DNA of 64,000 nucleotides from Nitrosopumilaceae archaeon (GTDB lineage: Archaea; Thermoproteota; Nitrososphaeria; Nitrososphaerales; Nitrosopumilaceae), in assembly GCA_965214835.1 (NCBI GenBank), contig CBDCCK010000002.1:736001-800000 (forward strand). Direction: 5' to 3'. A program made the translations under genes and the position numbers. Positions 14,901 through 31,737 of this stretch are shown piece by piece. Numbering within the stretch: position 1 is the stretch's first letter; every line of letters starts with the position of its first letter. Below the pieces are notes generated by a model that was not told the origin of the DNA, did no database searches, and saw only the letters and a program-made list of their open reading frames with translations.

Positions 14901-16616
14901 GACCTTATGCGTAAACGAAATTAGCGGCGATGCCCCCGGCGCACGGGCTACAAATGAGGCAAGTCAGGGCCGGCGCACGCGCGACTGTACCTTACAACGT
15001 TGAAAATATTTGATCAAAACCACAACTATTTTCAGACGATTGATTTAGATCCGGGATCCATTCTCGCATAAGAGTAATGGCAAAGTCCGAGACCGAGCAG
15101 ATACGACTGCTGAAGAAGAGAATCGAGCAGTACGAGAAGGAGAAGGTACAGGACAGGAAGGAGAAGGCGCGGGACAAAAAGAAGATCAAGAAGTATGAGA
15201 AGAGGATCAAGAGGCACGAGAAGAAGAGCAGGCAGGACAGGAAGGAGAAGGCGCGGGACAGGACGGAGAGGATGCAGTACAGGAAGGAGATCAGAGAGTA
15301 CGAGAAGAAGAGCAGGCAGGACGGCAGGAGGCAGGAGCGGGATCAGGAGAGGATAGGGCAGCTGGAACAGCAGCTGGACGCCGAGCGCCGGATGTGGCCC
15401 GCAACCTGGGATGACGACAGGCGCTCCGCGGACAACGCCGCCCTCATGCACAGGCTCGAGGTGCTCGATGACATAATCGGTGGCGGGTCCCTGCAGCCCA
15501 CCACGTCGATGAACCTCCGCCAGTTTGACTACATATATGACCGGTTTACGAAGCTTGCCAAAAAGCACACAGAAGGCCCCCTGTTCTCAGAAGACGAGGA
15601 CAACTTGCCCGGAAACCGGTGCAAGCTGTCCTACCGCCACGCCCTGCTGATGTCGCTGATGCGCAAGTACGGAAACCCGACACAGGAGCAGCTTGCGGCA
15701 TTCTTTGGCATAGACCAGAGCACCGTATGCAGGTACCTCAGGTATTGCGACATGATATTCACCAAGATACTGCCCACGCCGGACGCCGTATCGCGAAAGA
15801 TACGAAACGCCCGCACGATCAAGGAAGTCAAGAAGATCGTCCCGGATCTGACCGTGATTGTAGACGGCACGCACATCGACATACAGCGCCCCACAGACAA
15901 GGAGCCAAGAAAGGAGGCATACTCTGGCAAGAAGAAGAGCTTTACGCGCAACACCCAGGTGATTGCCGACAAGAAGGGACTGGCGATGTATGCAAGCAAG
16001 TCGGCGCCCGGAAGCACGCACGACCTCACCATGATAAAGAACAACCCACCGGATCTGGGAATCCTGACTGCCAGGATGCGCAGCAACAGAAAGCACCCCG
16101 AGGACGAGAAGGTAAAGATGTTCTCTGATCTGGGATACATGGGAATCGAGGAGGTGTATCCCGGGGCCACATCCGTGCAGCCCGACAAGAAGCCAAGGAA
16201 AGGCAAGCTTACAAAGAAACAGAAAGCGCAGAACAGGAGGATAAGCAGCAAGAGGGTGACAGTAGAGCACGCCATAGGACGGATAAAGCAGTACAAGCGG
16301 ATGCGTGATCCGTACGACGGGACCGCCGAGGAGTTCGACAGGGAGTTCCAGGTGACGGCCGGGCTTGCCAACTTTAGGCTGCTGTGGGACAAGCGGAACA
16401 AGAAGCTCATGCATGGGTTCTGATACCACGATACGGAGCGCATTGCGGCGCCACACGATGCCGCACGACATTGTCGTTTTTACCAGCTGTAATGGCTCGT
16501 AGCTACACTATATACGGACTGTGCCGCCCTCATGCACGTCATGTGATGCCGTCAGCCTTGCATGTATGGCCGGTCACCGTCGGAATATTTCGATCCGGTC
16601 GATTACGCATAAGGTC
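14901..16616 (+). mobile_element. Apparently intact IS5-family (ISL2/PIF-like) element
   Basis: TIR GACCTTATGCGTAA / TTACGCATAAGGTC, TA duplication. Confidence 0.9.
15077..16423 (+). CDS. IS5-family DDE_Tnp_4 transposase with a long charged N-terminus
   Basis: HTH (QEQLAAFFGIDQSTVCR), IVDGTH..QRP, YSGKKK, PGSTHD, SDLGY, RVTVEHAIGRIK. Confidence 0.92.
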   Translation: MAKSETEQIRLLKKRIEQYEKEKVQDRKEKARDKKKIKKYEKRIKRHEKKSRQDRKEKARDRTERMQYRKEIREYEKKSRQDGRRQERDQERIGQLEQQLDAERRMWPATWDDDRRSADNAALMHRLEVLDDIIGGGSLQPTTSMNLRQFDYIYDRFTKLAKKHTEGPLFSEDEDNLPGNRCKLSYRHALLMSLMRKYGNPTQEQLAAFFGIDQSTVCRYLRYCDMIFTKILPTPDAVSRKIRNARTIKEVKKIVPDLTVIVDGTHIDIQRPTDKEPRKEAYSGKKKSFTRNTQVIADKKGLAMYASKSAPGSTHDLTMIKNNPPDLGILTARMRSNRKHPEDEKVKMFSDLGYMGIEEVYPGATSVQPDKKPRKGKLTKKQKAQNRRISSKRVTVEHAIGRIKQYKRMRDPYDGTAEEFDREFQVTAGLANFRLLWDKRNKKLMHGF

Positions 16617-17373: not shown

Positions 17374-17480
17374 GTGAACTACCAACGACTAAAGCCGTTG
17401 GCTTCCTCGTTCAACGAGCCGGCTTGACCATGGCGATTTGTCATGACCAGAGGCCTTCTCTCCGGAGGCGTGACTTTCCC
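17374..17480 (-). mobile_element. IS200/IS605- or IS607-type right end (TnpB omegaRNA scaffold-like remnant), no tnpB gene
   Basis: Minus strand GGGAAAGTCACGCCT...GGCTCGTTGAACGAGGAAGCCAACGGCTTTAGTCGTTGGTAGTTCAC: terminal hairpin plus TCAC, typical of these ends. Confidence 0.7.
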
Positions 17481-17635
17481 GCGTCCCACAGACAAGGATC
17501 CAAGAAAGGAGGCGTACTCGGGCAAGAAGAAGAGCTTTACGCGCAACGTCCAGGTACTGGCCGACAAGAGGGACCTGACGATGTATGCAAGCGAGTCGGC
17601 TCCCGGAAGCGCGCACGACCTCACCATGATAAGGG
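17481..17635 (+). pseudogene. Internal fragment of the IS5-like transposase
   Basis: RPTDKDPRKEAYSGKKKSFTRN...PGSAHDLTMI, homologous to ~15885-16040. Confidence 0.85.
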
Positions 17636-19044
17636 ACAACTCGCTTTCTACGCTGCCCCTGCGGCAGATAATTCCGGATGATGACGCCAACTGGCTGAAC
17701 CAGACAGACAACGACTTTGATGAATTGGTTCCAGTCATAGATACGGATGGCGGAACTTCGCTGTTTAGGACACTGTTGATGGGATCAACGTCAGGTCGAG
17801 ACGAGTGGGTATGTGACTTTACTAAATCATCACTTCAGAGCAAGATGAAATACTTTGCTAAATTTTACAATGACACAATTAAAAAATATAATGAAGAGAA
17901 ACTAGATGGTGATCTAAAAGACTGGGTGGATAAGAAGATCAAATGGGGTAGGGAAATTATTAAACGATTGAAGCATGGAGATGAAATAGTCTACTCTGAC
18001 ACCAACATCAAAAATCTACTGTATAGACCGTTTGTATTAAAATTTCATTATTTTGATAGGATAATAGTCGATTATCAAAGAAAGTTCCCACAAATTTTTA
18101 AAGATAACAACCCAAACAAAATCATTTGTTTTGTAAACCCGCAAAATAATTCAACATTCCAAACCTTGGCAACTAATCAGATTGCAGAATATCATCTAAC
18201 TGACACGACACAATGTATTCCGCTTCATACATACGATATGGATAATTACAGTTCCAGCAATGTGACAGAATCTGGACTAGAACTATTCCAAAAACATTAC
18301 AAGGACAAAACGATAACTGATGAAGACATATTCTACTACACCTACGCCATCTTCAGCGATCCAAAATACTCTGGCAAATACAAGTTTAACCTGCAGCGCA
18401 AATTTCCGCGAATCCCGCTGGCTGAGAATTTCAGGGAGTGGGTGAGGATAGGTCAGAGGCTGTACATCCTGCATACGGAGTTTGAGGATGCAGAGCCTTA
18501 CGCGTTGCACAGAATAGACAAAAAAACCCGCAAAAATGGCACCAAGCTAAGACTGAAAAAATCCGACGAAAACCAATCTGTGATAATAATAGATGAGCAG
18601 ACCGTCCTTGACGGTGTCCCAAGCCAGGCTTTGGAATACAAGCTCGGTTCAAAGTGTGCACTGGAGTGGATTCTGGAGTTCTACAAGGAATCAAAGAACG
18701 TCATAAAAGAAAAGTCATGCGATGATCCCGCAATACGCGAGAGATTCAACACGTACAGGTTTGCAGACCACAAGGAGCATGTCATAGACCTGCTGCAAAG
18801 GGTTACCACGGTCTCGGTAGAGACAGTGAAGCTGCAGCGAGAACTCGAAAGAATGCCCTGGGGGGAACAGCCAAAACCATACCTTGGAAAATCTGACGTC
18901 AGTGTCGACAAGGCAACGAAAAAACCGCAAATGAGGAAATCCAAACAGCCCAAAAAGCCAAAAGTCGCAAAGAAGAACAGAAGGAAATCCGGGCTCCAGG
19001 ACACGCTTGACGGATCCGGGCAGAAAAGGCTGTTTGGGAACTAG
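17633..19044 (+). pseudogene. Orphan C-terminal (specificity) part of a Type ISP-like methyltransferase, cassette A
   Basis: DNSLSTL..WLNQTDNDF..LYRPF..FPRIP..CALEWILEFYKE..GQKRLF; open frame; paralogue of 27371-30565. Confidence 0.85.
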
Positions 19045-19126
19045 GCCACGGCAGAGTCACATACAGCCCAGCTCCCTAAGTTAACGCCAGAAACCCCTAA
19101 CTTAACACCCCGCTGAAAAGCCCCGA

Positions 19127-19164
19127 AGATTTACCAGAGTACTAAACTGTACTCTGGTAAATCT
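19127..19164. repeat. Perfect 16-bp inverted repeat with a 6-bp spacer (left border site)
   Basis: AGATTTACCAGAGTAC-TAAACT-GTACTCTGGTAAATCT. Confidence 0.95.
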
Positions 19165-19287
19165 CCGAGAGTTTTCAGAGACCTGTTAAATTAGGGTGCT
19201 GGGGTGTTAAATTAGAGTGTTAGAGACGTCGGCAAGAACAAACGATTGATGGCACGCTACAAGCGTTGGCTTCGGGAATGTTGAAGG

Positions 19288-21159
19288 TCAGAACAGCCTT
19301 TTCTGGCCGGTTCCGTCAAGCGTGTCTTGGAGCTTGGATTTCTTTGATTTCTTGGGTTTTTTAGGCTGTTGTCTGGTTTTTTTTGTTTGCAATTTTCTCA
19401 TCGTCTTGTCATTGCCGGCATCAGACTTCTTAAGGTGCAGTTCCGGCTGCTTCCCCCAAGGCATGTTTTCAAGATCCCGCCGCAGATTCATCGTCTCGAC
19501 TGAGATACTGGTGACCTTTTGTAGTAGGCCTATGACATGTTCCTTGTAATCTGCAAACCTGTACGTGTTGAACTTTTCCCGGATTTTGGGATCATCGCAG
19601 GATTTGTCGGATATGACGTTCTTTGATTCCTTGTAGAATTCTAAGATCCATTCCAGTGCGCATTTTGAGCTGAATTTGTATTCCAATGCTTGATCAGGTA
19701 CATCCTCAAGTATGGTCTGCTCATCAATCACTATTTTCAATGACTCGCTTTCTGATTTTTTTAAACTCAATTTGGTGCTGTTCTTGTTTGTTTTCCTGTC
19801 TGTGCGTTTTAACGGAAATGGCTCTGCCTCTTCAAAATGGACATGAAGGTCATAGAGTTTTTTGCCTAGCCGTACCCATTTCGAAAAATTTTCTGCGAGA
19901 GGTATTCTTGGGAACTTGCGCTGGAGATTGAACTTGTATTTTTCTTGGTATTTCGGATCATTGAAAATGGCATAAGTATAGTAGAATACGTCCTCGTCTG
20001 TTATCGTTTTGCTCCCGTAGTGTTTTTGAAATAACTCCAAACCAAAGTCAGTAATGTTGCTGTGACGCTTGCCCTCGTCATCGTATGTGTAAAGCGGGAT
20101 GCACTGAGTGCCAACAACACAATCAAGATCCATGATTTTATCAGTTGCCAATGTCTGAAATAACACATTAGTTTTTGGATTGGCAAAACCAATTAGCCTG
20201 TTTGATCTAGAATTTTTGAAGATGTTAGGAAATTTTCTCTGCCTATGTGTTATTATTTTATCAAAATAATTCTTCTTCAATACAAATGGCCTATACATTA
20301 CGTCTTTGATGTTGGATTTTGAATATGCGATTTTATTTCCACGTTTTATATGCTTAAAGAAATCCTCGGTCCACTTGATTTTTTTATCTGCCCAGTCTTT
20401 TAGACTAACCGCTAGGTTTTCTTCATCATATTTAGAAAGTGTTTTGCTGTAAAAATCAACAAAATATTTTATCTTGTTTTCAAGCGATGTTTGGTCAAAA
20501 TCATACACCCATTCGTTCCTGTTTGATGCCAGTCCCATAGACAGTACTCCAAATATGGAATTTTCTTTATCAGACACGATCGGAACCAGTTTTTTAAAAT
20601 CATTGTCAGTCTGGTTCAGCCAGACCGCATCCTCGTCGGGCACTATCTCCCTTAGCTGCAGGGTAGAAAGCGAGTTGTCCGCAAGCCATTTTAGCTTAGC
20701 TTCACTTTTCATATAGTCTGCAATTTCTGTGTATCTAATCTCAGATTTTTCTTCACCCGTTTTGATAAAAAAGGATATGGTTACACCAACCTTGATGGTG
20801 TCTCGAAACACGTTGCCTTTCTGTTTGCGGCGTTCCTCGCCTGATGTACGAGCATTTCCCTTCAGGTTGACAGTATAGATGTAATCAAACTCTTCAAACA
20901 CCGACCTCCTGAACCCATCGTCTGACTTTGCGTCAAGAAAGGAGTTGTTGCTCACAAATATGACCATGCCGTTGTTCTTGATGCGCTCGCTTGCCCACTT
21001 GAGAAAGCGCTTGTACATGTCATACTGCTTATCCTTGTTCCCTACAGTGGAATTTTTGACGTACGTTTCTTCTATTTTCTTATCAAGGTCAGGATATTTG
21101 TCAGCAGGATTTGCGTCGTTAAAGCTTACCTGGACCGCGTTGTACGGCGGGTTTCCCAA
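19288..21159 (-). pseudogene. 5'-truncated alternative C-terminal half of the Type ISP-like methyltransferase (from GNPPY to stop), cassette B
   Basis: Open frame; homology to the full gene begins abruptly at TTGGGAAACCCGCCGTAC; lacks the SAM-binding motif I. Confidence 0.9.
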
Positions 21160-22330
21160 AACTCGCCTTAGTATGTGTGAGCATATCCAGAACACAGTTA
21201 ATCTGTTGCGGTGTTGCCCGCTCTAAGATCTCCTGTATTTGCTGTTTCGGTTCTGATCTAGAAATTACACCCACCTGATCCAAGTATTCCTCGGATCTTG
21301 CAAAGGCATCACTCATTTCATTTAGCAAAACTTCTGGAAGGATCCCCTTGTTTGTGGTGTATCTTGATTCGATGGTGCCTTTATGCCCCATGAAGAAGAC
21401 TCGGAAATCATGCGCAATCTTTCCTTTAGACTCTGCTATTAGCAGCTGTGTGTCAAAATATGCACGTAGCACATACGGCCTCCACCCAAATTTGGGTCGG
21501 AGCGTATTGCGTATTTTGTCGCTTATTCGTTGTGTTGGAAGGAACGCCTTTTGCGATCTTCTCCAAGCATGTACTTCACTATGATCGTTGGGGGATATTA
21601 CGGGTGAGTTCTCGTCCAGATTCTCCCCAGACGCAAGTCTGTCGTTTAGATACGTCACTAGCTGTTCTGTTGCTTGACATGTGGAGAATGTAAAGTACTG
21701 GTGTCCTGCCTTTGACAATTCACGTCTTACGATGATTCGGTTTGGCGTCCGGATGCATTTTACTGTTCCATGTAAAATCGAAATATCTGGAAGATCCCTC
21801 ATCTGTAACCCATCTGTCCCTCTGTGGTTACCAATTACGCCCGGTCTCATACCTGATTTTGCCATAAGTGATATCAGCACGGATTCTCGCAATCCTGCAT
21901 TGCTGTATATGTCTGTCATTTCATGTGCATCAGGCACCCGTTCATTCTGCAGTGTGGGAGAAAACCCAGCAGATGCAATTCTTATTCGTCGCTTTACCAC
22001 CACATCAAAATGCCTGAACCAGGATTTTACGGTGTTTATATGATCCTCTATGTATCCAGGAGAATAGTTGTTGGACTCCATCATGGTTATGTGATCCTCC
22101 AGCAGGTCTGTTGCAGTCCTCAGATCGTTGACTGCAAGATCTGCAAGCTGGGAGGGAGTCATCTTGTGCATCTCACAGAACCTTCCCAGCTTCCGCAGGC
22201 GTCCCTCGGCGGTAAGAGGACTTCCACGCATCAGATTGTCATACCACCGTTGGACATCCTGATTAGATAGTAATTTTGATTTCTTGGTGTGGTTGGCAAC
22301 GTCTTTTGCACACGCTTTACGGGTTTTCAT
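21119..22330 (-). CDS. Tyrosine recombinase/integrase (archaeal type)
   Basis: SGMRPG (R), ELSK (K), PYVLR (H/YxxR), FMGH (H), RYT (Y). Confidence 0.9.
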   Translation of the reverse strand: MKTRKACAKDVANHTKKSKLLSNQDVQRWYDNLMRGSPLTAEGRLRKLGRFCEMHKMTPSQLADLAVNDLRTATDLLEDHITMMESNNYSPGYIEDHINTVKSWFRHFDVVVKRRIRIASAGFSPTLQNERVPDAHEMTDIYSNAGLRESVLISLMAKSGMRPGVIGNHRGTDGLQMRDLPDISILHGTVKCIRTPNRIIVRRELSKAGHQYFTFSTCQATEQLVTYLNDRLASGENLDENSPVISPNDHSEVHAWRRSQKAFLPTQRISDKIRNTLRPKFGWRPYVLRAYFDTQLLIAESKGKIAHDFRVFFMGHKGTIESRYTTNKGILPEVLLNEMSDAFARSEEYLDQVGVISRSEPKQQIQEILERATPQQINCVLDMLTHTKASFGKPAVQRGPGKL

Positions 22331-22400
22331 ACGGATTGGTTTTAGATGCCTAATCTTATCCTTATGCGTGACAGGGCATCCACTGTTAAAAAATAAGGCA

Positions 22401-23744
22401 TCAGGAAAGCAGTTTCATCCAGCAGCTGTTTTTTCCATTTGACAGCCAGCTGAATCCGTGCAGACGTAGTATATCATTGATTTCCCGCCAGATGTGCTTG
22501 TCAATCCATGCCCTGGGAGATATTTTGATAGAATCCCCCTCGTTCACAATTGAAACTTTGCTAATTCTCTTTCCCAAATTGCTTGTAAAACTCGGTGTCG
22601 TCATCGACTGTTTTATCAGGTCCAAATACTTGTCGTTTCCAAGTCCAAGCTCGATCCCTGATGCCTGAGCCGGAGTCCTGCCGTCAAGCCCCTGATGCGG
22701 TTTTACAAAATTGTGGTTTATTTTCAGCAACTCTGCAAAGTCCTGTGCTGACTCGTCATTGCCAAGGCCGCGTCTTGCCTTTAGGTTCTCTCTGATCTCG
22801 TTGTGATACCTCTCTATGGGCCTGTTTGCAAACCCGTCCCTGATGGATTTTGTTTTGACATGTGCTGTCATTTCTTTGAATTCTTTTCGCATTGCCTCCT
22901 GATACGAGTTTAAGGCATCTGTAATGACATAGTTAGGATACTTGGGTATCAGCTTCTTACCGCTTGCTATGATTCTTCTTGCATCTGCAATCTCGCGTCT
23001 CTTGGAGACTTCGGTAGCAATCAGAAATCGGGTCTTGGGATCAATGATGCTCCACAACCAGTCATAGAATCCCTTTCCAGTCTTCTCTGTGTTTTTTACG
23101 TTCAGCGTCATCTCATCCAAAGACCATACATCACCAAGCGTTGGACAAAATGACTCCACGTATTCTTTGATCAGTTGGGTGTATTTTTTTATCCAATTTC
23201 TAACGGAGACGTAACTGATCTTAATTCCGTGGACGGAATTGATGTGTCTTGAAATGTTTCTGTACGAGACGCCTGACATGACTAGGTTGATTGATTCGGA
23301 TATTATCTTTGGATCAGACGACATCTTTGAAAACCCGCTTTCTCCAAGGTTGAACCTATAGCCGCATTGCTTGCATTTGTATAGTTGTCTCTTTGTATCA
23401 TCCTTGAGAATTCTGAACCCAGACTTGATTATTGTAGTCGAATAACATTTGGGACAGATTCTTGGCTGTTCCGTCTTTTCAATCCTATTTTGGGTCTTGA
23501 TGTTGTCCTTTAGCATTATGCAACATATGATATGCTTGCAATGCTTGTCGTCTTGTGTTCTGAGCCGGTTATGAAAATCCGGACACTCGCATGTCCATAT
23601 GTCTATGTCATGCAGTTTTTTTACGCTATATTCCTTGTCGGAGTTTTGTGATTTTACTACATAGTGGTTCTTTGTTATCTTTCTGACCGAGTTGACCTTT
23701 GAGAGGATCTGGACTGCTTTTTCATCCCTACTTGTATACTTCAT
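22401..23744 (-). CDS. IS6-like DDE transposase/integrase with an N-terminal SWIM finger and Zn ribbon
   Basis: WTCECPDF..CKHI (SWIM), CPKC..CKQC, WSLDEM, IIDPKTRF, ITDAL, NRPIERYH, NFVKPHQGLDGRTPA. Confidence 0.85.
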   Translation of the reverse strand: MKYTSRDEKAVQILSKVNSVRKITKNHYVVKSQNSDKEYSVKKLHDIDIWTCECPDFHNRLRTQDDKHCKHIICCIMLKDNIKTQNRIEKTEQPRICPKCYSTTIIKSGFRILKDDTKRQLYKCKQCGYRFNLGESGFSKMSSDPKIISESINLVMSGVSYRNISRHINSVHGIKISYVSVRNWIKKYTQLIKEYVESFCPTLGDVWSLDEMTLNVKNTEKTGKGFYDWLWSIIDPKTRFLIATEVSKRREIADARRIIASGKKLIPKYPNYVITDALNSYQEAMRKEFKEMTAHVKTKSIRDGFANRPIERYHNEIRENLKARRGLGNDESAQDFAELLKINHNFVKPHQGLDGRTPAQASGIELGLGNDKYLDLIKQSMTTPSFTSNLGKRISKVSIVNEGDSIKISPRAWIDKHIWREINDILRLHGFSWLSNGKNSCWMKLLS

Positions 23745-23829
23745 ATTGTATAGATAACGGTATATCTATAAAACATTATCTGCCTAAAGCCAGATATCCT
23801 TTATATATGTGGATTCACATATTCGAATA

Positions 23830-23988
23830 TTGGCAAGGAAAAAAACAAGTCTCACTTTGGATGAGAAAATCTGGAATAACTTTCAGGCATACGCATTAAA
23901 AAAACACGGAAACACTCGTAACGCCAACACAGAACTGGAGCTTGCCATGTATGAATACATTAAGAATCACCCTGTGGAGAAAAAATAG
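23830..23988 (+). CDS. Small ribbon-helix-helix-like regulator
   Basis: Own translation (TTG start): MARKKTSLTLDEKIWNNFQAYALKKHGNTRNANTELELAMYEYIKNH.., 52 aa, divergent from the transposase and upstream of the RM genes. Confidence 0.65.
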   Translation: MARKKTSLTLDEKIWNNFQAYALKKHGNTRNANTELELAMYEYIKNHPVEKK

Positions 23989-24074
23989 AATGAATGTTAA
24001 CCGCAAATCGTCAAGGATGCCTGTATTGGGCGGTAAAAATCTAAAAATTCAAAAACAAGCCAAACGCGTGATTC

Positions 24075-27000
24075 ATGGGTAACGGTGAACTAATCATGGG
24101 TAGTGAGGATACGGTAATTGACAATGAGAGTGTCGTACTTTTAGATCAACTAAGAGAGATACTGCCAGATACGAACAGGGCAAGCATTGCGGTGGGCTAT
24201 TTCTTCATCTCTGGATTCAGCGCAATAATGGGTAGCTTAAACAAGATAGAGTCAAGCAGCGACCCAAACCACGTTATACGGCTGTTGATCTCACCGACTA
24301 CAAACCGGGCCACGGCAGAGGCGTTACTTGCAAGCAACGAGTCTTATGAAACAGCAAGAATGAGGGGCAAACAAACCGGTTCTGAGGAAAGAGGAAAAAA
24401 GACCGCAAAAGAAGAGGTCAAAAAAACGCTTGAGTACATGTCGCAAACAAACGAGGATCAAAAGGCTACAGCGAAACTTGCCGAACTGATCAAAAAGAAA
24501 AAAGTGCAGGTGAAGGTATATACAAAGGATCAACTTCATGCAAAGGCGTATATTTTCGAGCTTGACAACAGACAGCTTTCAAAGATGGCAATAGTAGGTT
24601 CCAGCAACCTCTCAATGTCGGGGATAAAGGAGCATACTGAGCTTAATCTGAGAACAAATCACTCAGGCGACTCTGGCAAACTGCTAGAATGGTTTGATCG
24701 ACATTGGAACGATCCCAGCTGCCAGGAATTCACGCGGGAGATAGCTGACATCATAGATGAATCCTGGATTGCCAAACACTCGCCAAATGACGTGTACGAC
24801 AAGGCGGTTCTTCATGAGCATGAAGAACTTTTTGAAGAGCCCGACGGAGTAGATGAAAAAACACGAGAGTTGTTTGACTTTCAAAAGACGGCAGTAAGCA
24901 ACGCCATAAAAAAACTCGACAGGTATGGGGGTGTCATGATTGCCGATGTGGTGGGTACAGGCAAATCCTACATTGGTAGTGCCATTCTAAAGCATCTCAA
25001 GGAGAACAACCGCTCAAAACCACTGATAATATGCCCACCCCACCTCAAGGAGATGTGGCAGGAATACATGAAAGATTTTGACATTTACTGCCAGATAGAA
25101 TCAAGATACAAGATAGGCATGGAGGATAACATACTCTCACGCTACACAAACTGCGACGCGGTGTTGATAGACGAGAGTCACAACTTTCGCAATTCAAGCA
25201 CAAACGCATACAGGGCACTGCTTGCATTCATGGAGGAAAAGACAGAAGAGGCCAAGATAATCATGCTGTCTGCCACCCCGATATCAAACCGCATCACGGA
25301 TCTAAAGAACCAGCTAAGGCTTTTCCCAAGAGAGATGCTCTTGCAGATACCTCCCCTGAACAACACAACACTTGATGAATACTTTAAGGGATTAGACGGC
25401 CCAAAAGACGAGCTCAGAGAGGAGGCCGACACCAAGATACGGGAACTTCTCAAGTATATTCTAATCCGACGTACCCGCAAGCAGATCATGAAAAAGTATG
25501 CCAAAAAAGACGGCAAACGGTACTATCTTGAAAAGGACGGGCAACGAAAGTACTTTCCAAGAAGAGAGTTACAGAATCCAAAGGAGTACAATGTTGACAA
25601 GGTGTACAACAACTCCTTTGACATGATCCAAAGCGCGATTGAGGATCTTACCCTTGCGAGGTTTGCCCCGGGAAACTACATCAAGAAAGAATATCTGAAC
25701 GACTCTAACCCGGACCACAAAAAATATGTCGATTTGAACAGTACGACAAAGCCACTGGTTGGCATAGTTCGGACATCGCTACTCAAGAGGATGGAAAGTA
25801 GCATCATGGCGTTTGCATCCAGCGTAAAGCACTATCAGGAAGGGTACAAGGAGTTCAGAAAGCAGCTTGACAAGGGCAAGGTTCCCATCGGAAAGGACTT
25901 TCATGATGAGATATACAAGAAGATCGCATACGAGGGGGAAGACTATGACGACGAGGAGTACGAGCAGAAAATGGCAAAGATCTCATCTCAGTACGACATA
26001 GAGGCGTTTGACGTGGAACGTTGGAAGAGGGACATAGCAGAGGACATTAACCGTTTTTCAAGCATCAAGGGGAATCTGGTGTCAAAGTCCGAGTATACCA
26101 AATATGATGACAAGCTCCACACGCTGGTAAAACTGGTCAACGGAATGGACAGGGAAAAGATTCTGATCTTTTCTGAATCTGCCGTAACCGCAAAATACGT
26201 CTACGAATACATGAAAAAGGAACTAAATCCGCCTCGTCGTATTGCGCAGATTGACTCTAAACAGGGAAACAGGGAGAAAAATGTCTTGATCAGGAAGTTT
26301 GATCCGAAGAACAACAACGCTACTGCTGATGTTCCAAAAAGCGAGGAGATTGACGTGTTGATAAGCACGGACGTACTGTCTGAGGGAGTGAACTTGCAAG
26401 CTGGCAAGACGGTAATCAACTATGACTTTCACTGGAATCCCGTCAGGCTCATACAGAGAGTAGGAAGGATAGACAGGATAGGCACGCAACACGAAACTGT
26501 CGACGTGATCAATTTCCTTCCTACGGCAAAGATTGACGCGACTCTCTCGCTCAAAGAAAGGGTTGCAAACAAGATTGAGACCATCCGCAGGATAATAGGA
26601 CATGATCAGCAGATACTAGAGTCAACAGAAGTATTGGACGAAAAGGGCGTGCTTGACATTTATGCTGGTAACGAGGACGTACTGGATTCTGATGTTGCAA
26701 GCATCATTGATATGGGCGAATCAAAGTCAGAACAAGACGCAGACAATATAAAAAGAGATGAGACAAGAAGACAACATATCGAGCAGATGCCCTTTGGCAT
26801 AAGAAGCGTTTCAGGCACGGGTAAGCTTCTGATAGCGTGCGAGGCACGGGAGATTGTAATGGATCAGCGTGGCCGCCACATGTCTGAACGTCCGTTTAGA
26901 AGACACTACGAAATAACGAAGGACAGCATTACTCAGATCTGGCAGTCATCCTTCCTGAACGAGTTGGGGAAAAACCAAGGAAACCTATCCGGCACGGAGG

Positions 27001-27374
27001 ATTCCACATATAACGAGCTTGTGGCTGAAGCGTGGAAAAAGTTCGATAAGGACATGAAAAATTCCAGTGCAAAAAAGACCATGCTAAAGCACCAGCAATA
27101 CTTTGATAAAAAATTAAGACAGATGTCCGAAAGTCAGGACTTGGGCCGTCGCGCAATGTCCATGCTGCCGTTCGTAGGACAGAGAATGCTTACAAATCTC
27201 CAGCCGTACAAGAGGCTAACCGAGCTTCGCAAGGAGATTGACAGGAATCCCGACACTGATGACAAGATGATAATCGAGGGGTTGGAAACGATCAGGGATA
27301 AATACGGACAGACGGAATATGAAAAGACGATAAGCAAGCCTCGTATACTGTATAGCATGATGGTGGCCAAATGA
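24075..27374 (+). CDS. PLD-family nuclease plus SF2 (SNF2-like) helicase, putative restriction subunit
   Basis: AVGYFF, LHAKAYIF..IVGSSNLS..ELN (PLD); ADVVGTGKS, DESH, SATP, TDVLSEGVNLQ, WNPVRLIQRVGRIDR. Confidence 0.9.
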   Translation: MGNGELIMGSEDTVIDNESVVLLDQLREILPDTNRASIAVGYFFISGFSAIMGSLNKIESSSDPNHVIRLLISPTTNRATAEALLASNESYETARMRGKQTGSEERGKKTAKEEVKKTLEYMSQTNEDQKATAKLAELIKKKKVQVKVYTKDQLHAKAYIFELDNRQLSKMAIVGSSNLSMSGIKEHTELNLRTNHSGDSGKLLEWFDRHWNDPSCQEFTREIADIIDESWIAKHSPNDVYDKAVLHEHEELFEEPDGVDEKTRELFDFQKTAVSNAIKKLDRYGGVMIADVVGTGKSYIGSAILKHLKENNRSKPLIICPPHLKEMWQEYMKDFDIYCQIESRYKIGMEDNILSRYTNCDAVLIDESHNFRNSSTNAYRALLAFMEEKTEEAKIIMLSATPISNRITDLKNQLRLFPREMLLQIPPLNNTTLDEYFKGLDGPKDELREEADTKIRELLKYILIRRTRKQIMKKYAKKDGKRYYLEKDGQRKYFPRRELQNPKEYNVDKVYNNSFDMIQSAIEDLTLARFAPGNYIKKEYLNDSNPDHKKYVDLNSTTKPLVGIVRTSLLKRMESSIMAFASSVKHYQEGYKEFRKQLDKGKVPIGKDFHDEIYKKIAYEGEDYDDEEYEQKMAKISSQYDIEAFDVERWKRDIAEDINRFSSIKGNLVSKSEYTKYDDKLHTLVKLVNGMDREKILIFSESAVTAKYVYEYMKKELNPPRRIAQIDSKQGNREKNVLIRKFDPKNNNATADVPKSEEIDVLISTDVLSEGVNLQAGKTVINYDFHWNPVRLIQRVGRIDRIGTQHETVDVINFLPTAKIDATLSLKERVANKIETIRRIIGHDQQILESTEVLDEKGVLDIYAGNEDVLDSDVASIIDMGESKSEQDADNIKRDETRRQHIEQMPFGIRSVSGTGKLLIACEAREIVMDQRGRHMSERPFRRHYEITKDSITQIWQSSFLNELGKNQGNLSGTEDSTYNELVAEAWKKFDKDMKNSSAKKTMLKHQQYFDKKLRQMSESQDLGRRAMSMLPFVGQRMLTNLQPYKRLTELRKEIDRNPDTDDKMIIEGLETIRDKYGQTEYEKTISKPRILYSMMVAK

Positions 27375-30300
27375 GTTTTGAGGATCGCCTGGAATCCCTT
27401 CAAAGGACGCTGAAATTAAGCGGATATGAGAATATACGCCATTTCGTTGACATAAGCGCGCTAGTAAGGGACGAATCAGTAAGCGACTGTGAGATAATAG
27501 CGCGCAAGGATTTCTACAACATCTTATATCTGGAGGCAAAGTCAAACTGGCGCGGCATTGCCACCGACGTGGCCAAAAAGCAGTCAAAGCCATGCCTTGT
27601 CATCACTGGCTACGGGGAATCACACCTGATCCTATCCACCATCAAGGATTACTTTACAAATCCAAGACCGCGCCATGTCATCATCGACACAAGATCCAAG
27701 ACACATTCTTTTGACGGATTTGCAAAGCTGATCAAGGTAAGGCCGGAGGACGATTTTGTATCTATAGATGAGCAAGTACACCATGCGTTTGATGAATTTG
27801 CGGCGTACGAGGAGGCGCTTGACGAATTCGGCGAGAACCTCAAAAACGCAATAAAAAACACACGGGAAATCATAGTAAAGGCATCAAAAAACAACAAGAG
27901 ATACGACGCAGAGTCTGAACAGTTTCTGGAGATGTGTCACAAGGTGATAAGCAACAAGCTCAAATCAGACGACATTACAGAGATGATTCTTCAGCATGTC
28001 CTGACATACAAGATCTTCTCCCTGATATACGACGAGCACGAACTCCACAGCACCAATGCAATAGCACGGTCACTTGAGGGCATAATAGATACGCTTGGAG
28101 TCGATATGGAGCAGATTAGTACCGGCTACCAGACGACAAAACTGGTAGCCGAATCGCTTACAGATTTTGCCGAAAAGCAGGACTTTCTCAAACGCGTGTA
28201 TGAGACGTTTTATGCAGAGTATGACCCAAAAAACAAGGACAGTTGGGGAATAGCATACACCCCATCAGAGGTTGTGGATTTCATGGTAAGGTCGACCGAC
28301 CAGCTGCTTGAAAAACACTTTGGAAAATCAATGTCCGATGATTGTGTTACCCTACTTGATCCGGCCACCGGTACGGGAACATTCATTACACAGATCCTGA
28401 GGCACCTGAAGCACAACTCTGTCAAAACCAAATACGAAAATGACATATTTGCAAACGACATATCGTTACTGGCATACTACATTGCTGCGCTGAACATAGA
28501 GAATACATACCAAGAGATAACAGGGCAAGTCAAAGAGTTTGAGAACATATGCTGGATGGATACCCTTGCTACTGGCACAAAGGACTTTGGGAAGGTAAGC
28601 ACGTATTTTGATGAGCAGGACAATGTAAAGAGGATCTCAAAGCAGCAAGTAAAGGACATATGTGTGGTCTTGGGAAACCCGCCGTACAACGCGGTCCAGG
28701 TAAGCTTTAACGACGCAAATCCTGCTGACAAATATCCTGACCTTGATAAGAAAATAGAAGAAACGTACGTCAAAAATTCCACTGTAGGGAACAAGGATAA
28801 GCAGTATGACATGTACAAGCGCTTTCTCAAGTGGGCAAGCGAGCGCATCAAGAACAACGGCATGGTCATATTTGTGAGCAACAACTCCTTTCTTGACGCA
28901 AAGTCAGACGATGGGTTCAGGAGGTCGGTGTTTGAAGAGTTTGATTACATCTATACTGTCAACCTGAAGGGAAATGCAAGACTGTCTGGTGATGCATGGA
29001 GACGCGAGGGGGATAAAATATTTGGCCAGAGTGCGCGTGTTGGCATATCCATATCTTTTTTTATAAAAACGGGAGAAAATCATTCAGAGATACGATACGT
29101 GGAAATAGACGATTATTTGAAGAGGGAAGATAAGCTAAAATGGCTTGCGGACAACTCGCTTTCTACCCTGCAGCTAAGGGAGATAGTGCCCGACGAGGAT
29201 GCGGTCTGGCTGAACCAGACTGACAATGATTTTAAAAAACTGGTTCCGATCGTGTCTGATAAAGAAAAATCTGTCTTTGAATTGCTTTCAATGGGTTTAA
29301 CATCTAATAGAGACGAATGGGTGTATGATCTAGGCCGGAAATCACTTGAAAACAAAATGAGGTATTTCGTTGATTTTTACAACAAATCAGTCGCACAATA
29401 TCAGAATGAACATCCTAAGGATACAGAATTCAAAGACTGGGCAGATAAAAAAATCAAGTGGACCGAGGATTTCTTTAAGCATATAAAACGTGGAAATAAA
29501 ATCGCATATTCAAAATCCAACATCAAAGACGTAATGTATAGGCCATTTGTATTGAAGAAGAATTATTTTGATAAAATAATAACACATAGGCAGAGAAAAT
29601 TTCCTAACATCTTCAAAAATTCAAGCCGTAATAGACTGATTAATTTTACAAATCCTACACCAAAAAGCCGATTTCATGCGCTTGTGTCAGACAAGATCGT
29701 TGATCTTCATTATGTTATTGACACTCAATGCATTCCGCTTTACACATATGATGATGGGGGCAAGCGTCACAGCAACGTCACTGACTTTGGTTTGGAGTTA
29801 TTTCAAAAACACTATAGGAACAAAGCGATAGCAGACGAGGACATATTCTACTACACCTATGCCATTTTCAATGATCCGAAATACCAAGAAAAATACAAGT
29901 ACGATCTGCAGCGCAAATTCCCAAGAATTCCGCTGGCTGAGAATTTTGGTGATTGGGTGAAAATAGGCAGGAAACTGTATGATCTCCATGTCAACTTTGA
30001 ATGTGTCAAAAAGTATCCATTGAAGCGAACAGACAAAAAGACTGCAAAAAATCAAACCCGACTCCTGCTGAAAAAACCGAAAGAGGAAGACAACTCTCAG
30101 GATTTTACCATAATGATTGATGATAATACGATGCTTGAAGGAGTGCCAAAAGAAACGTTGCAATACAAATTCAGCTCAAAATGCGCACTGGAGTGGATCT
30201 TAGAATTCTACAAGGAATCAAAGAACGTCATATCCGACAAATCCTGCGATGATCCCAAAATCCGGGAAAAGTTCAACACGTACAGGTTTGCAGATTACAA

Positions 30301-30565
30301 GGAACATGTCATAGGCCTACTACAAAAGGTCACCAGTATCTCAGTCGAGACGATGAAGCTGCGGCGGGATCTTGAAAACATGCCTTGGGGGAAGCAGCCG
30401 GAACTGCACCTTAAGAAGTCTGATGCCGGCAATGACAAGACGATGAGAAAATTGCAAACAAAAAAAACCAGACAACAGCCTAAAAAACCTAAAAAACCCA
30501 AGAAATCAAAGAAATCCAAGCTCCAAGACACGCTTGACGGAACCGGCCAGAAAAGGCTGTTCTGA
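27371..30565 (+). CDS. N6-adenine DNA methyltransferase with a Type ISP-like C-terminal specificity domain
   Basis: GIAYTP..VVDFMVRS, LDPATGTGTF, GNPPY, NLKGN, RDEWVY, YRPF, FPRIP, ALEWI; ATGA overlap with the helicase stop. Confidence 0.92.
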   Translation: MSFEDRLESLQRTLKLSGYENIRHFVDISALVRDESVSDCEIIARKDFYNILYLEAKSNWRGIATDVAKKQSKPCLVITGYGESHLILSTIKDYFTNPRPRHVIIDTRSKTHSFDGFAKLIKVRPEDDFVSIDEQVHHAFDEFAAYEEALDEFGENLKNAIKNTREIIVKASKNNKRYDAESEQFLEMCHKVISNKLKSDDITEMILQHVLTYKIFSLIYDEHELHSTNAIARSLEGIIDTLGVDMEQISTGYQTTKLVAESLTDFAEKQDFLKRVYETFYAEYDPKNKDSWGIAYTPSEVVDFMVRSTDQLLEKHFGKSMSDDCVTLLDPATGTGTFITQILRHLKHNSVKTKYENDIFANDISLLAYYIAALNIENTYQEITGQVKEFENICWMDTLATGTKDFGKVSTYFDEQDNVKRISKQQVKDICVVLGNPPYNAVQVSFNDANPADKYPDLDKKIEETYVKNSTVGNKDKQYDMYKRFLKWASERIKNNGMVIFVSNNSFLDAKSDDGFRRSVFEEFDYIYTVNLKGNARLSGDAWRREGDKIFGQSARVGISISFFIKTGENHSEIRYVEIDDYLKREDKLKWLADNSLSTLQLREIVPDEDAVWLNQTDNDFKKLVPIVSDKEKSVFELLSMGLTSNRDEWVYDLGRKSLENKMRYFVDFYNKSVAQYQNEHPKDTEFKDWADKKIKWTEDFFKHIKRGNKIAYSKSNIKDVMYRPFVLKKNYFDKIITHRQRKFPNIFKNSSRNRLINFTNPTPKSRFHALVSDKIVDLHYVIDTQCIPLYTYDDGGKRHSNVTDFGLELFQKHYRNKAIADEDIFYYTYAIFNDPKYQEKYKYDLQRKFPRIPLAENFGDWVKIGRKLYDLHVNFECVKKYPLKRTDKKTAKNQTRLLLKKPKEEDNSQDFTIMIDDNTMLEGVPKETLQYKFSSKCALEWILEFYKESKNVISDKSCDDPKIREKFNTYRFADYKEHVIGLLQKVTSISVETMKLRRDLENMPWGKQPELHLKKSDAGNDKTMRKLQTKKTRQQPKKPKKPKKSKKSKLQDTLDGTGQKRLF

Positions 30566-30688
30566 CCTTCAACATTCCCGAAGCCAACGCTTGTAGCGTG
30601 CCATCAATCGTTTGTTCTTGCCGACGTCTCTAACACTCTAATTTAACACCCCAGCACCCTAATTTAACAGGTCTCTGAAAACTCTCGG

Positions 30689-30724
30689 AGATTTACCAGA
30701 GTACTAAACTGTACACTGGTAAGT
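30689..30724. repeat. Right border site (arm-TAAACT-imperfect arm)
   Basis: AGATTTACCAGAGTAC-TAAACT-GTACACTGGTAAGT. Confidence 0.9.
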
Positions 30725-30765
30725 TAACGGGAGCTGATTTCTCCTGGAAGGCGTCGGGAGCCGGA
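30711..30765 (-). mobile_element. End remnant of the IS6-like element
   Basis: CTGGTAAGTTAACGGGAGCTGATTTCTC matches 10382-10410 and the reverse complement of 31700-31733. Confidence 0.75.
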
Positions 30766-30918
30766 ACCGGTGGCTATCCCTCATGCTAACGGCCGGGTGA
30801 TGTCGGAGGAGGTGACCTAGTACAAAAGAAGGCTTCTTGGTTTTGTCTGGATTTGGCTCAGCGTCTCATTTGGCATCTTGGGTTGGCCGGTTGATGCTAG
30901 TCACGCACAGAATATACG

Positions 30919-31200
30919 CTAGTCTAGAATGACTGGTCTCCAGTCAGACAGATTACGGGAGTTATAATTGCACTCATCCTGATCGTTGTACATCCATTCG
31001 TTATTGTCTAATATCACAACGCCGCCAAAGAGGCTCTTGGAGTTCTTTATGTATCGCGTAAGCGCTTCGGCCTTGTATTTGGCCTCTTTTGCAGTAAATC
31101 CTTCCTTGGTATCGAACAGCCCTACCTTGCCATTCTCCATGCGGATTATAAAATCAAGCCGGAGCAAATCCGGATGAGTATTTCCTGACGAAGGTATCAA
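30919..31200 (-). pseudogene. C-terminal fragment of a Type III-like restriction (Res) endonuclease
   Basis: DFIIRMENGKVGLFDTKEGFTA...KAEAL..Y...GGVV; PD-(D/E)xK-like; truncated. Confidence 0.55.
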
Positions 31201-31228
31201 AAACTCACTGTATTTCTTCCGCGCTAGC

Positions 31229-31737
31229 TGGATTCCGAGACACGGTTCTGGCTGGCCCAGACGGTCTCAGAACACAAGGGAAACGACGACGTGTCCCCGA
31301 TGTTCAGGGATGCCAAGAGGAAGGCAAGCAAAATCCCAAAGATGCTGATATCGGACAGGGCTGCAAACTTTCACCATGCATGGAGGGAGCAGTACCGATC
31401 CAAGAACTTCCTCCACAAGGACACCGAACATCACAGGAACATCCATCTCTCCGGCGACATGAACAACAACCAGATGGAGTCATTCAACGGCAACACACAG
31501 GGCCTGCGAGAAGGTGATCCGTGGGATTAAGAGGGACGATTCTGCCATACTCAGGGGGATGCAGATCCACCACAACTACATCAGGCCCCATCAGGGTCTT
31601 GACGGCGACATGCCGGCAGACAGGGCCGGAATCAGAATAATGGGAGAAAACAAGTGGAAGACCATAATCCAGAACGCCCATACCAGCTCCCGACGCTTTC
31701 CGGGAGAAATCAGCTCCCGTTAGCTTACCAGTCCCCA
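31229..31737 (+). pseudogene. Frameshifted IS6-like transposase 3' half with its element end
   Basis: DSETRFWLA, LISDRAANF, NNNQMESFNG, HNYIRPHQGLDG; ends TTACCAGTCCCCA. Confidence 0.8.

Follow-up and report, generated by a model that had tools for sequence, protein, structure and literature searches.

The window, by which we mean the whole 64,000-nucleotide stretch of DNA analysed here, carries two palindromic sites with five genes lying between them; the core genes near the region are archaeal. The first palindrome (19127-19164) is perfect, with 16-nt arms on either side of a 6-nt spacer (AGATTTACCAGAGTAC-TAAACT-GTACTCTGGTAAATCT), and the second (30689-30723) is a near copy (AGATTTACCAGAGTAC-TAAACT-GTACACTGGTAAG), the right arm of which has one mismatch and diverges after 13 nt. 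Both sites, read directly from the sequence, are as given in the preliminary description, as are the pairs of CTAAnTTAAC repeats with a 21-bp period starting at 19076/19097 and 30638/30659, the start of every arm 21 nt past the end of the second subterminal repeat, and the direct orientation of the asymmetric spacer TAAACT at both palindromes. The subterminal repeats are CTAAGTTAAC and CTAACTTAAC at 19076 and 19097, respectively, and CTAATTTAAC at both 30638 and 30659, with a mirror pair of GTTAAATTAG at 19185 and 19206. The inverted homology beside the sites, earlier put at ~540 bp, is present but measures about 2.04 kb (19122-21162 versus 28667-30731) at about 87% identity, including 311 nt at 100%. 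The core TTACCAGWGTAC occurs four times in the window with at most one mismatch, against an expectation of 0.19 (none of 100 shuffles reached four), and seven times exactly genome-wide, where a control pattern gave no match.

Genes and ends at the locus

The segment 19150-30703 (11,554 bp; with a further 8 bp, the 11.56 kb of the earlier account), hereafter E2, is preceded on the forward strand by cassette A (17443..19044), the 3' portion of a Type ISP-like methylase gene of another, older element, E1 (Pfam Type_ISP_C, 1.2e-74). Pfam also identifies a piece of a DDE_Tnp_4 insertion sequence (IS) fused to its N-terminus, and the cassette shares 59-61% amino acid identity with cassettes B and C of E2. 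A DDE_Tnp_4 IS at 15077-16423 of the window has 15 genomic copies with at least 99% protein identity, and its transposase gene holds a run of 21-nt tandem repeats (15114-15344). Within E2, cassette B (19288..21195, reverse strand) is a silent part of a methylase gene, inverted and endowed with an alternative target-recognition domain (TRD; Pfam Type_ISP_C, 4.2e-76, plus an Eco57I end), showing 80% amino acid identity to residues 433-1064 of the active gene. On the same strand lie the genes for a tyrosine recombinase of 403 aa (21119..22330) and a transposase of 447 aa with SWIM-like and IS6-like DDE regions (22401..23744). Two cargo genes occupy the forward strand: one codes for a PLD nuclease fused to an SNF2 helicase, the restriction subunit (24075..27374; Pfam PLDc_2, SNF2-rel_dom, Helicase_C), and the other is the active gene with cassette C, which combines a coupler, an N6-methylase and a Type ISP C-terminal specificity domain (27371..30565; Pfam ISP_coupler, N6_Mtase, Eco57I and, at 2.5e-76, Type_ISP_C). 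The cargo of E2 comprises a two-gene Type ISP-like restriction-modification (RM) system, a spare inverted specificity cassette and the tyrosine recombinase.

A full methylase gene and a silent inverted 3' cassette with a common repeat and an adjacent recombinase present the layout of a shufflon. The repeat, 311 nt long and 100% identical in inverted orientation, has its inner arm at 20852..21162 and its partner at 28667-28977, and is a candidate crossover region for TRD switching; cassettes B and C likely constitute an inverting specificity switch for the two-gene ISP-like system. One contig of 7,570 nt coincides with the segment that the 311-nt repeats enclose and fits either orientation. The inner edge of the repeat extends over the final 44 nt of the gene for the tyrosine recombinase, and because the gene abuts the repeat a role for its product in cassette switching is plausible from position alone. 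The 403-aa protein has no match in Pfam, NCBIfam, PHROG or the PDB sequences. Its family, a large thaumarchaeal one, numbers 2,000 proteins or more, the few with a name being annotated as site-specific integrase, and its structural model (pLDDT 67, falling below 50 in the catalytic region) has XerA, IntI and Cre as the best fold matches. We found orthologs in 33 of 201 genomes, including the unpublished G077, and a tRNA gene adjoins the integrase gene in five of 11 ortholog loci.

Comparison of copies resolves the palindromes into the tips of abutted ends. On the left, the right end of E1 (19045..19141, forward strand), placed by an alignment of eight genomic copies in which homology stops at the terminus, has its subterminal repeats at 19076-19085 and 19097-19106 and its 15-nt terminus AGATTTACCAGAGTA at 19127-19141. 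The left copy of the 8-bp target duplication, CTAAACTG, occupies 19142..19149; the identical 8-mer stands at 30704..30711 as the right copy, in a register seen at six other insertions. The left end of E2 (19150..19215, reverse strand; repeat search and copy alignment) includes the terminus TACTCTGGTAAATCT at 19150-19164 and subterminal repeats at 19185-19194 and 19206-19215, and its right end (30566..30703, forward strand; sequence reading, repeat search and copy alignment) has the subterminal repeats at 30638-30647 and 30659-30668 and the terminus AGATTTACCAGAGTA at 30689-30703. Beyond the right copy of the 8-mer lies an older neighbour (30712..31732), composed of a hybrid end and a degenerate, short IS6-like IS of ~1 kb with 50-nt inverted repeats. 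The first four bases of the hybrid end, TACA, are E-type; a shared CTGGTAA follows, and then the inverted repeat of the short IS, of which 10 of the 11 other genomic copies starting ACT begin G[GA]ACTGGTAAG... (G[GA]ACTGG). Inside this IS, at 31511-31687 of the window, is a weak transposase remnant. It is the hybrid end that supplies the right arm of the second palindrome, and its composition suggests a deletion or exchange between the ends of a cargo transposon and a short IS.

A shared end module and the elements it bounds

A 16-mer search of the genome (G000) recovered the arm together with its upstream repeats at eight places. In the alignment of these eight copies similarity always ends at the terminus, with unrelated DNA beyond it. 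As five of the eight follow a Type ISP specificity cassette, the palindrome and repeats might be taken for a conserved downstream regulatory or terminator region of methylase genes, placed tail to tail by gene duplication. We hold this to be vanishingly improbable: in other genera the module comes after the transposase gene or after unrelated cargo, and it bounds elements devoid of methylases, its homology stops at a fixed base before unrelated DNA, and the hairpin has no T-run after it. One module copy in the genome (G000:C2:65240-65382) comprises only the last 53 nt, directly 3' of a 90-nt tRNA gene, and 8 bp after the module end there is a degenerate arm-like stretch. At G000:C2:854480-854567 a terminus is present in two identical copies, directly oriented and separated by 72 bp, with CCCAAG after both; this is a local duplication of the end with its flank.

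Each end module spans ~65-75 bp and consists of two subterminal 10-mers (consensus CTAAnT[TG]AAC, with starts 20-21 bp apart) and a 15-nt terminus (consensus AGATT[TG]A[AC]CAG[AT]GT plus one tip base). In sequence the terminus is similar to the subterminal repeat (AGATTTAAC versus CTAATTTAAC), giving a third copy of a related motif per end. Among 41 distinct ends, selected by a pattern allowing at most two mismatches per motif, the start-to-start spacing of the subterminal repeats is 21 bp in 31 and 20 bp in 10, and a stretch of 20 nt (17 ends) or 29 nt (21 ends) leads on to the terminus; the base counts of these ends are circular because the pattern selected them, and the spacings are not. 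These spacings keep the three sites in roughly equal helical phase, which fits one protein that would bind along a single face of the DNA.

In 200 genomes of the family the 16-mer, with at most one mismatch allowed, was matched 22 times outside G000 and a control pattern 15 times, so that raw counts in the relatives barely exceed the control; true ends are told from chance matches by their sequence context, and 10 of the 22 carry subterminal repeats. Further copies of the module were found around transposase genes. The end module is present across genera of the host family. In one 3.3-kb contig binned with a Dehalococcoidia bacterium (L090) a transposase 72% identical to that of the window accompanies a typical end module, reflecting either mis-binning or transfer between domains of life.

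The transposase combines a SWIM-like CxCx14CxH motif, a zinc ribbon (CxxC...CxxC), an IS6-like DDE domain and a conserved C-terminal domain. It is recognized by Pfam DDE_Tnp_IS240 (5.8e-14; 52.8 bits against a cut-off of 27) and scores 99.2 bits with NCBIfam transpos_IS6, below the cut-off of 125; a comparison with PDB sequences returned only zinc-finger noise. In 10 of 10 orthologs D210, D276, E311 and R318 are invariant, and all 10 keep CxCx14CxH, the two CxxC pairs and the tryptophan-rich C-terminal domain. The protein search, whose tally is 73 of 201 genomes (including the unpublished G077, G092 and G093), recovered full-length orthologs (46-76% identity) from several genera, along with a separate group of shorter, multi-copy IS at 30-37% identity.

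Pairs of inverted modules in 20-kb regions around transposase orthologs delimit complete elements of 5.9 kb (L079), 4.4 kb (L080), 5.3 kb (L083) and 13.4 kb (L087). These four and E2 have one transposase ortholog each, at 58-76% identity, and the DDE ortholog is the only gene common to all five. The complete transposase-bearing elements measure 4.4-13.4 kb and carry two to nine further genes, which include RM genes in all five cases: ISP-like; Type III-like; an MvaI/BcnI enzyme with a methylase; a methylase with HsdS; and a Type I hsdRMS set. Of 11 additional loci, five have, immediately upstream of the transposase, a methylase together with a nuclease, helicase or specificity (HsdS) gene. Homologs of the window's own methylase and helicase were found neither in the 14 loci of the comparison nor in 36 further public-genome loci. 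Overall, elements bounded by the module span 0.2-13.4 kb, those with two ends and no transposase measuring 212 bp, 1.15 kb, 2.35 kb and 2.6 kb. At one locus a sequence homologous to the C-terminal end of the DDE protein in the window lies 2.3 kb inward from an end module. The 212-bp case is a miniature element in G019 (L039 16149-16364) with little beyond its two end modules.

Two further observations concern near-identical copies. G038 has two 100% identical copies of a 4,973-bp element 190 kb apart (L098 and L104 6439-11411), with a divergent end (TACACTGTTCCAAAC...), one subterminal repeat and no flanking repeats; the end search pattern did not match these elements, and this divergent end subfamily was found by comparing its two copies. 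The same 5.9-kb transposon with a Type III-like RM system is present in two different assemblies (L094 and L107 5863-11778), 99.93% identical, with a common right flank and different left flanks.

Target duplications, empty sites and abutted ends

We compared 66 bases of flank at every two-ended element. Seven of 14 insertion sites have a perfect direct repeat of 8 bp, always in one register and each with its own sequence: CTAAACTG at E2, AAAAAGTG at L080/L097, CGATTTAT at L087, CAAAATAC at the 2.35-kb element in L082, CTTTTTTG at an rps6e site in L041 and L043, CAAATCTT at L094/L095 and TTTGATAG at L099. These repeats sit one base outside the conserved 14-mer, and the tip bases of the two ends are complementary in all seven sites with the repeat; therefore the terminus is 15 nt long and the duplication 8 bp. 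The arm of the preliminary description is indeed terminal, with its boundary moved one base inward by the comparison of copies. The 212-bp miniature element is flanked by a 7-nt repeat that is shifted by one base relative to this register. At the remaining six of the 14 sites (L107, L083 of G003, L100, L105 and the two identical G038 copies) the 8-bp repeat is absent. As the right flank of L107 is the same as that of L094, its lack of a repeat can be attributed to a later rearrangement, and the loss at the six sites as a group is compatible with cointegrate transposition without being evidence of it.

In 23 of 200 relatives (three unpublished genomes among them) the insertion target at the 3' end of rps6e is intact and has a single copy of the repeat; a control pattern gave no match. 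In genus g26 the site is occupied in G026, G050 and G158 and uninterrupted in seven of the 11 genomes searched. The empty site carries no arm. In G057 the empty (C23:7756-7783) and occupied (C83:98-113) forms of the site are found in one assembly, suggesting a polymorphic, recently mobile insertion. As to the window, the contigs from one study span both sites in their assembled form (17611-19178, and 30675-31019 or 30675-31126), and contigs of other module copies diverge immediately after 19141, the proposed terminus. Among the assembled contigs none joins across E2 or represents an empty allele of the window's own site. Run X1 has a depth of 0-7 in the interior of E2 against 57-86 in the flanks, and one contig departs at 19152; these values hint at a strain devoid of E2 and are not countable as evidence.

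These data bear directly on the idea, one of two put forward at the outset, that the palindromes are loxP-, dif- or att-like cores at which the tyrosine recombinase (21119..22330) integrates or excises the 11.56-kb segment. In its favour, inverted arms surround an asymmetric overlap of 6-8 bp, in direct orientation at both sites, the 403-aa protein is a tyrosine recombinase by predicted fold, one module copy comes right after a tRNA gene, and tRNA genes, a common target of integrases, adjoin some of its orthologs as noted above. However, the overlap is not constant, the seven insertions having seven different 8-mers, and the empty rps6e target is devoid of arm-like half sites. Moreover, no homolog of the integrase is present in the 14 and 36 related loci (50 in all) that carry the ends or the transposase family, and G003 and G013, in which elements or ends are present, have no integrase match at E<=1e-120. 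Nor do the relatives of the integrase occur near such sites: nine paralog regions in the genome show no window-like repeat pattern (two have unrelated repeats), and the four closest orthologs have no RM gene nearby. Being missing from the related loci and a member of a widespread family, it is thus an ordinary integrase riding as cargo and not tied to the ends. The palindromes are most likely not recombinase crossover sites, and we judge the whole proposal very unlikely.

We instead consider it highly probable that the arms are the 15-nt termini of a family of IS6-related DDE transposons, whose ends have come to abut across an 8-bp target duplication. In this regard the other initial suggestion, that of transposon ends with arrayed binding sites and an insertion between two older ends, finds support in outline, with the terminus set at 15 nt and with TAAACT as only the centre of the duplicated 8-mer CTAAACTG. 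The transposase would bind the sites in the ends, cut at the tips and join them to the target with an 8-bp stagger, which would leave the flanking CTAAACTG. E2 would have inserted into the 8 bp between the right end of E1, which is older and now truncated, and another older end. Of these steps, we infer the binding of domains to sites, the reaction chemistry and the reason why resident ends attract insertions. The older ends flanking E2 are the right end of E1, next to cassette A, on the left and the hybrid end on the right. The palindromes arise because E2 sits exactly 8 bp from them, each copy of the duplication being faced by two inward-pointing termini.

The arrangement of two ends separated by 8 bp recurs in seven junctions; it is seen again at L050/L082, L089, L106, L101 and L042, and L092 has a degenerate version of it. 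Nine of 65 distinct ends have, at the offset expected for such a junction, a 14-mer resembling the arm in 10 or more of 14 bases, against three for the other 39 offsets together; at a threshold of at least 11 of 14 the figures are seven ends versus none at all other offsets. This excess implies that new insertions favour the 8 bp beside a resident end, with the qualification that the frequency of such insertions is not an unbiased one because the loci were chosen around transposase genes.

One could alternatively accept the ends as those of transposons and attribute the junctions to a transposase-driven conservative exchange at a resident end, as in IS26, with 19142-30703 behaving as a circular translocatable unit that has a palindromic junction. 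The identity of the right termini of E1 and E2, in direct orientation and each followed by the same 8 bp, agrees with this, as do the seven junctions with exactly 8 bp between ends and the about 100-fold targeting next to resident copies with exchange of the 8-bp flanks that is reported for IS6 elements in the accessible part of a review (PMC7986276). Against it, insertions away from resident ends are plain duplications of a single-copy target, no circle or empty junction is seen among the contigs, and the IS26 reaction makes no new duplication and takes place between whole IS copies rather than bare ends. We therefore think such an exchange improbable as the origin of the junctions, the release of an 11.56-kb circle by a transposase-driven conservative reaction being formally possible, and prefer insertion with duplication of the target.

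A more far-reaching possibility, which we offer tentatively and hold to be somewhat doubtful, is that resident ends act as landing beacons. Transposase bound to them might place new members of the family in the adjacent 8 bp, or exchange them conservatively, so that RM transposons would stack into a defence island; each junction, with its six transposase sites, might then be reactive and allow a neighbour to leave as a circle. If true, this would represent an IS26-like targeted pathway operating on the bare ends of archaeal cargo transposons.

Relationship to known elements and implications

The family has several points in common with IS6/IS26. It has a DDE domain with an arginine seven residues after the glutamate, passes the threshold of the Pfam IS240 model, and shows the 8-bp target duplication and the placement of new DNA beside resident copies. 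The cTGTt...caa signature of IS6 termini is matched by ACACTGTTCAATCT, which carries both cTGTt and caa, and the terminus in the window is a variant at this motif (CTGGTAAA). In the portion of the IS6 review consulted, the inverted repeats are 15-20 bp with GG tips and cTGTt and caaa motifs, the flanking repeats are 8 bp, and long transposases are described with a zinc finger (clade h) or with a zinc finger and a further N-terminal domain, at about 450 aa (clade i) (PMC7986276); the transposase described here is like those of clades h and i in its length of about 450 aa, its zinc finger and its extra N-terminal domain. There are also clear differences: the family here spans 2-13 kb with cargo, unlike the IS6 elements of ~0.8 kb in which the transposase is the sole gene, and only one IS6 member that carries a passenger gene is named in the same portion of the review (PMC7986276). 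Further, each 65-75-bp end has two subterminal repeats and a tip of T, G or C in place of GG, and the transposase has an extra conserved C-terminal domain and falls below the NCBIfam IS6 cut-off. On these features the family would appear to be a cargo-carrying variant of the IS6 kind.

Several better-known systems offer partial parallels. In loxP, dif and att sites inverted protein-binding arms surround a short asymmetric spacer whose orientation sets the outcome; unlike in those sites, the spacer here is not conserved between insertions, there is no linked cognate recombinase, and the arms belong to the inserted DNA. The ends of Tn7 and Mu have several spaced copies of one binding motif, as do the ends described here, but the transposases are unrelated, each end here has three copies, and there are no conserved accessory transposition genes. 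Abutted ends in the IS30 and IS3 families likewise place related ends back to back across a spacer of target-duplication length. Those families have other transposases, and the neighbours here are different elements rather than dimers, their junctions being known from sequence alone; the accessible text of the IS6 review refers both to (IS30)2 junctions and to IS30 and IS3-family elements that insert into terminal inverted repeats (PMC7986276).

The closest precedent for the cargo comes from transposon-like RM units of Xanthomonas oryzae, for which the available part of the source gives inverted repeats of about 65 bp and an 8-bp duplication confirmed against an empty site (PMC2853133). They share with the present elements the RM genes between long terminal inverted repeats and the 8-bp duplication. 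As far as that text goes, they differ in being bacterial single cases with no linked transposase, as opposed to a transposase-bearing family with many RM types, and the survey of transposon-like RM units retained no archaeal case (PMC2853133). A full-text literature search, including the consulted portions of PMC6563490, PMC7986276, PMC13343696 and PMC2853133, yielded no description of this transposon family; in the parts of the literature so covered, thaumarchaeal IS are described as one- or two-gene elements and an archaeal transposon-like RM unit is not named.

Finally, the family is of interest for the biology of its hosts. Ammonia-oxidising archaea rank among the most abundant of microbes, and little has been described of how their defence genes move. 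One transposase with defined 75-bp ends moving Type I, II, III and ISP-like systems would offer a route for the spread of RM systems and the growth of defence islands in these organisms. Additionally, ammonia-oxidising archaea, to our knowledge, lack genetic systems, and the transposon family could seed a native transposon tool.
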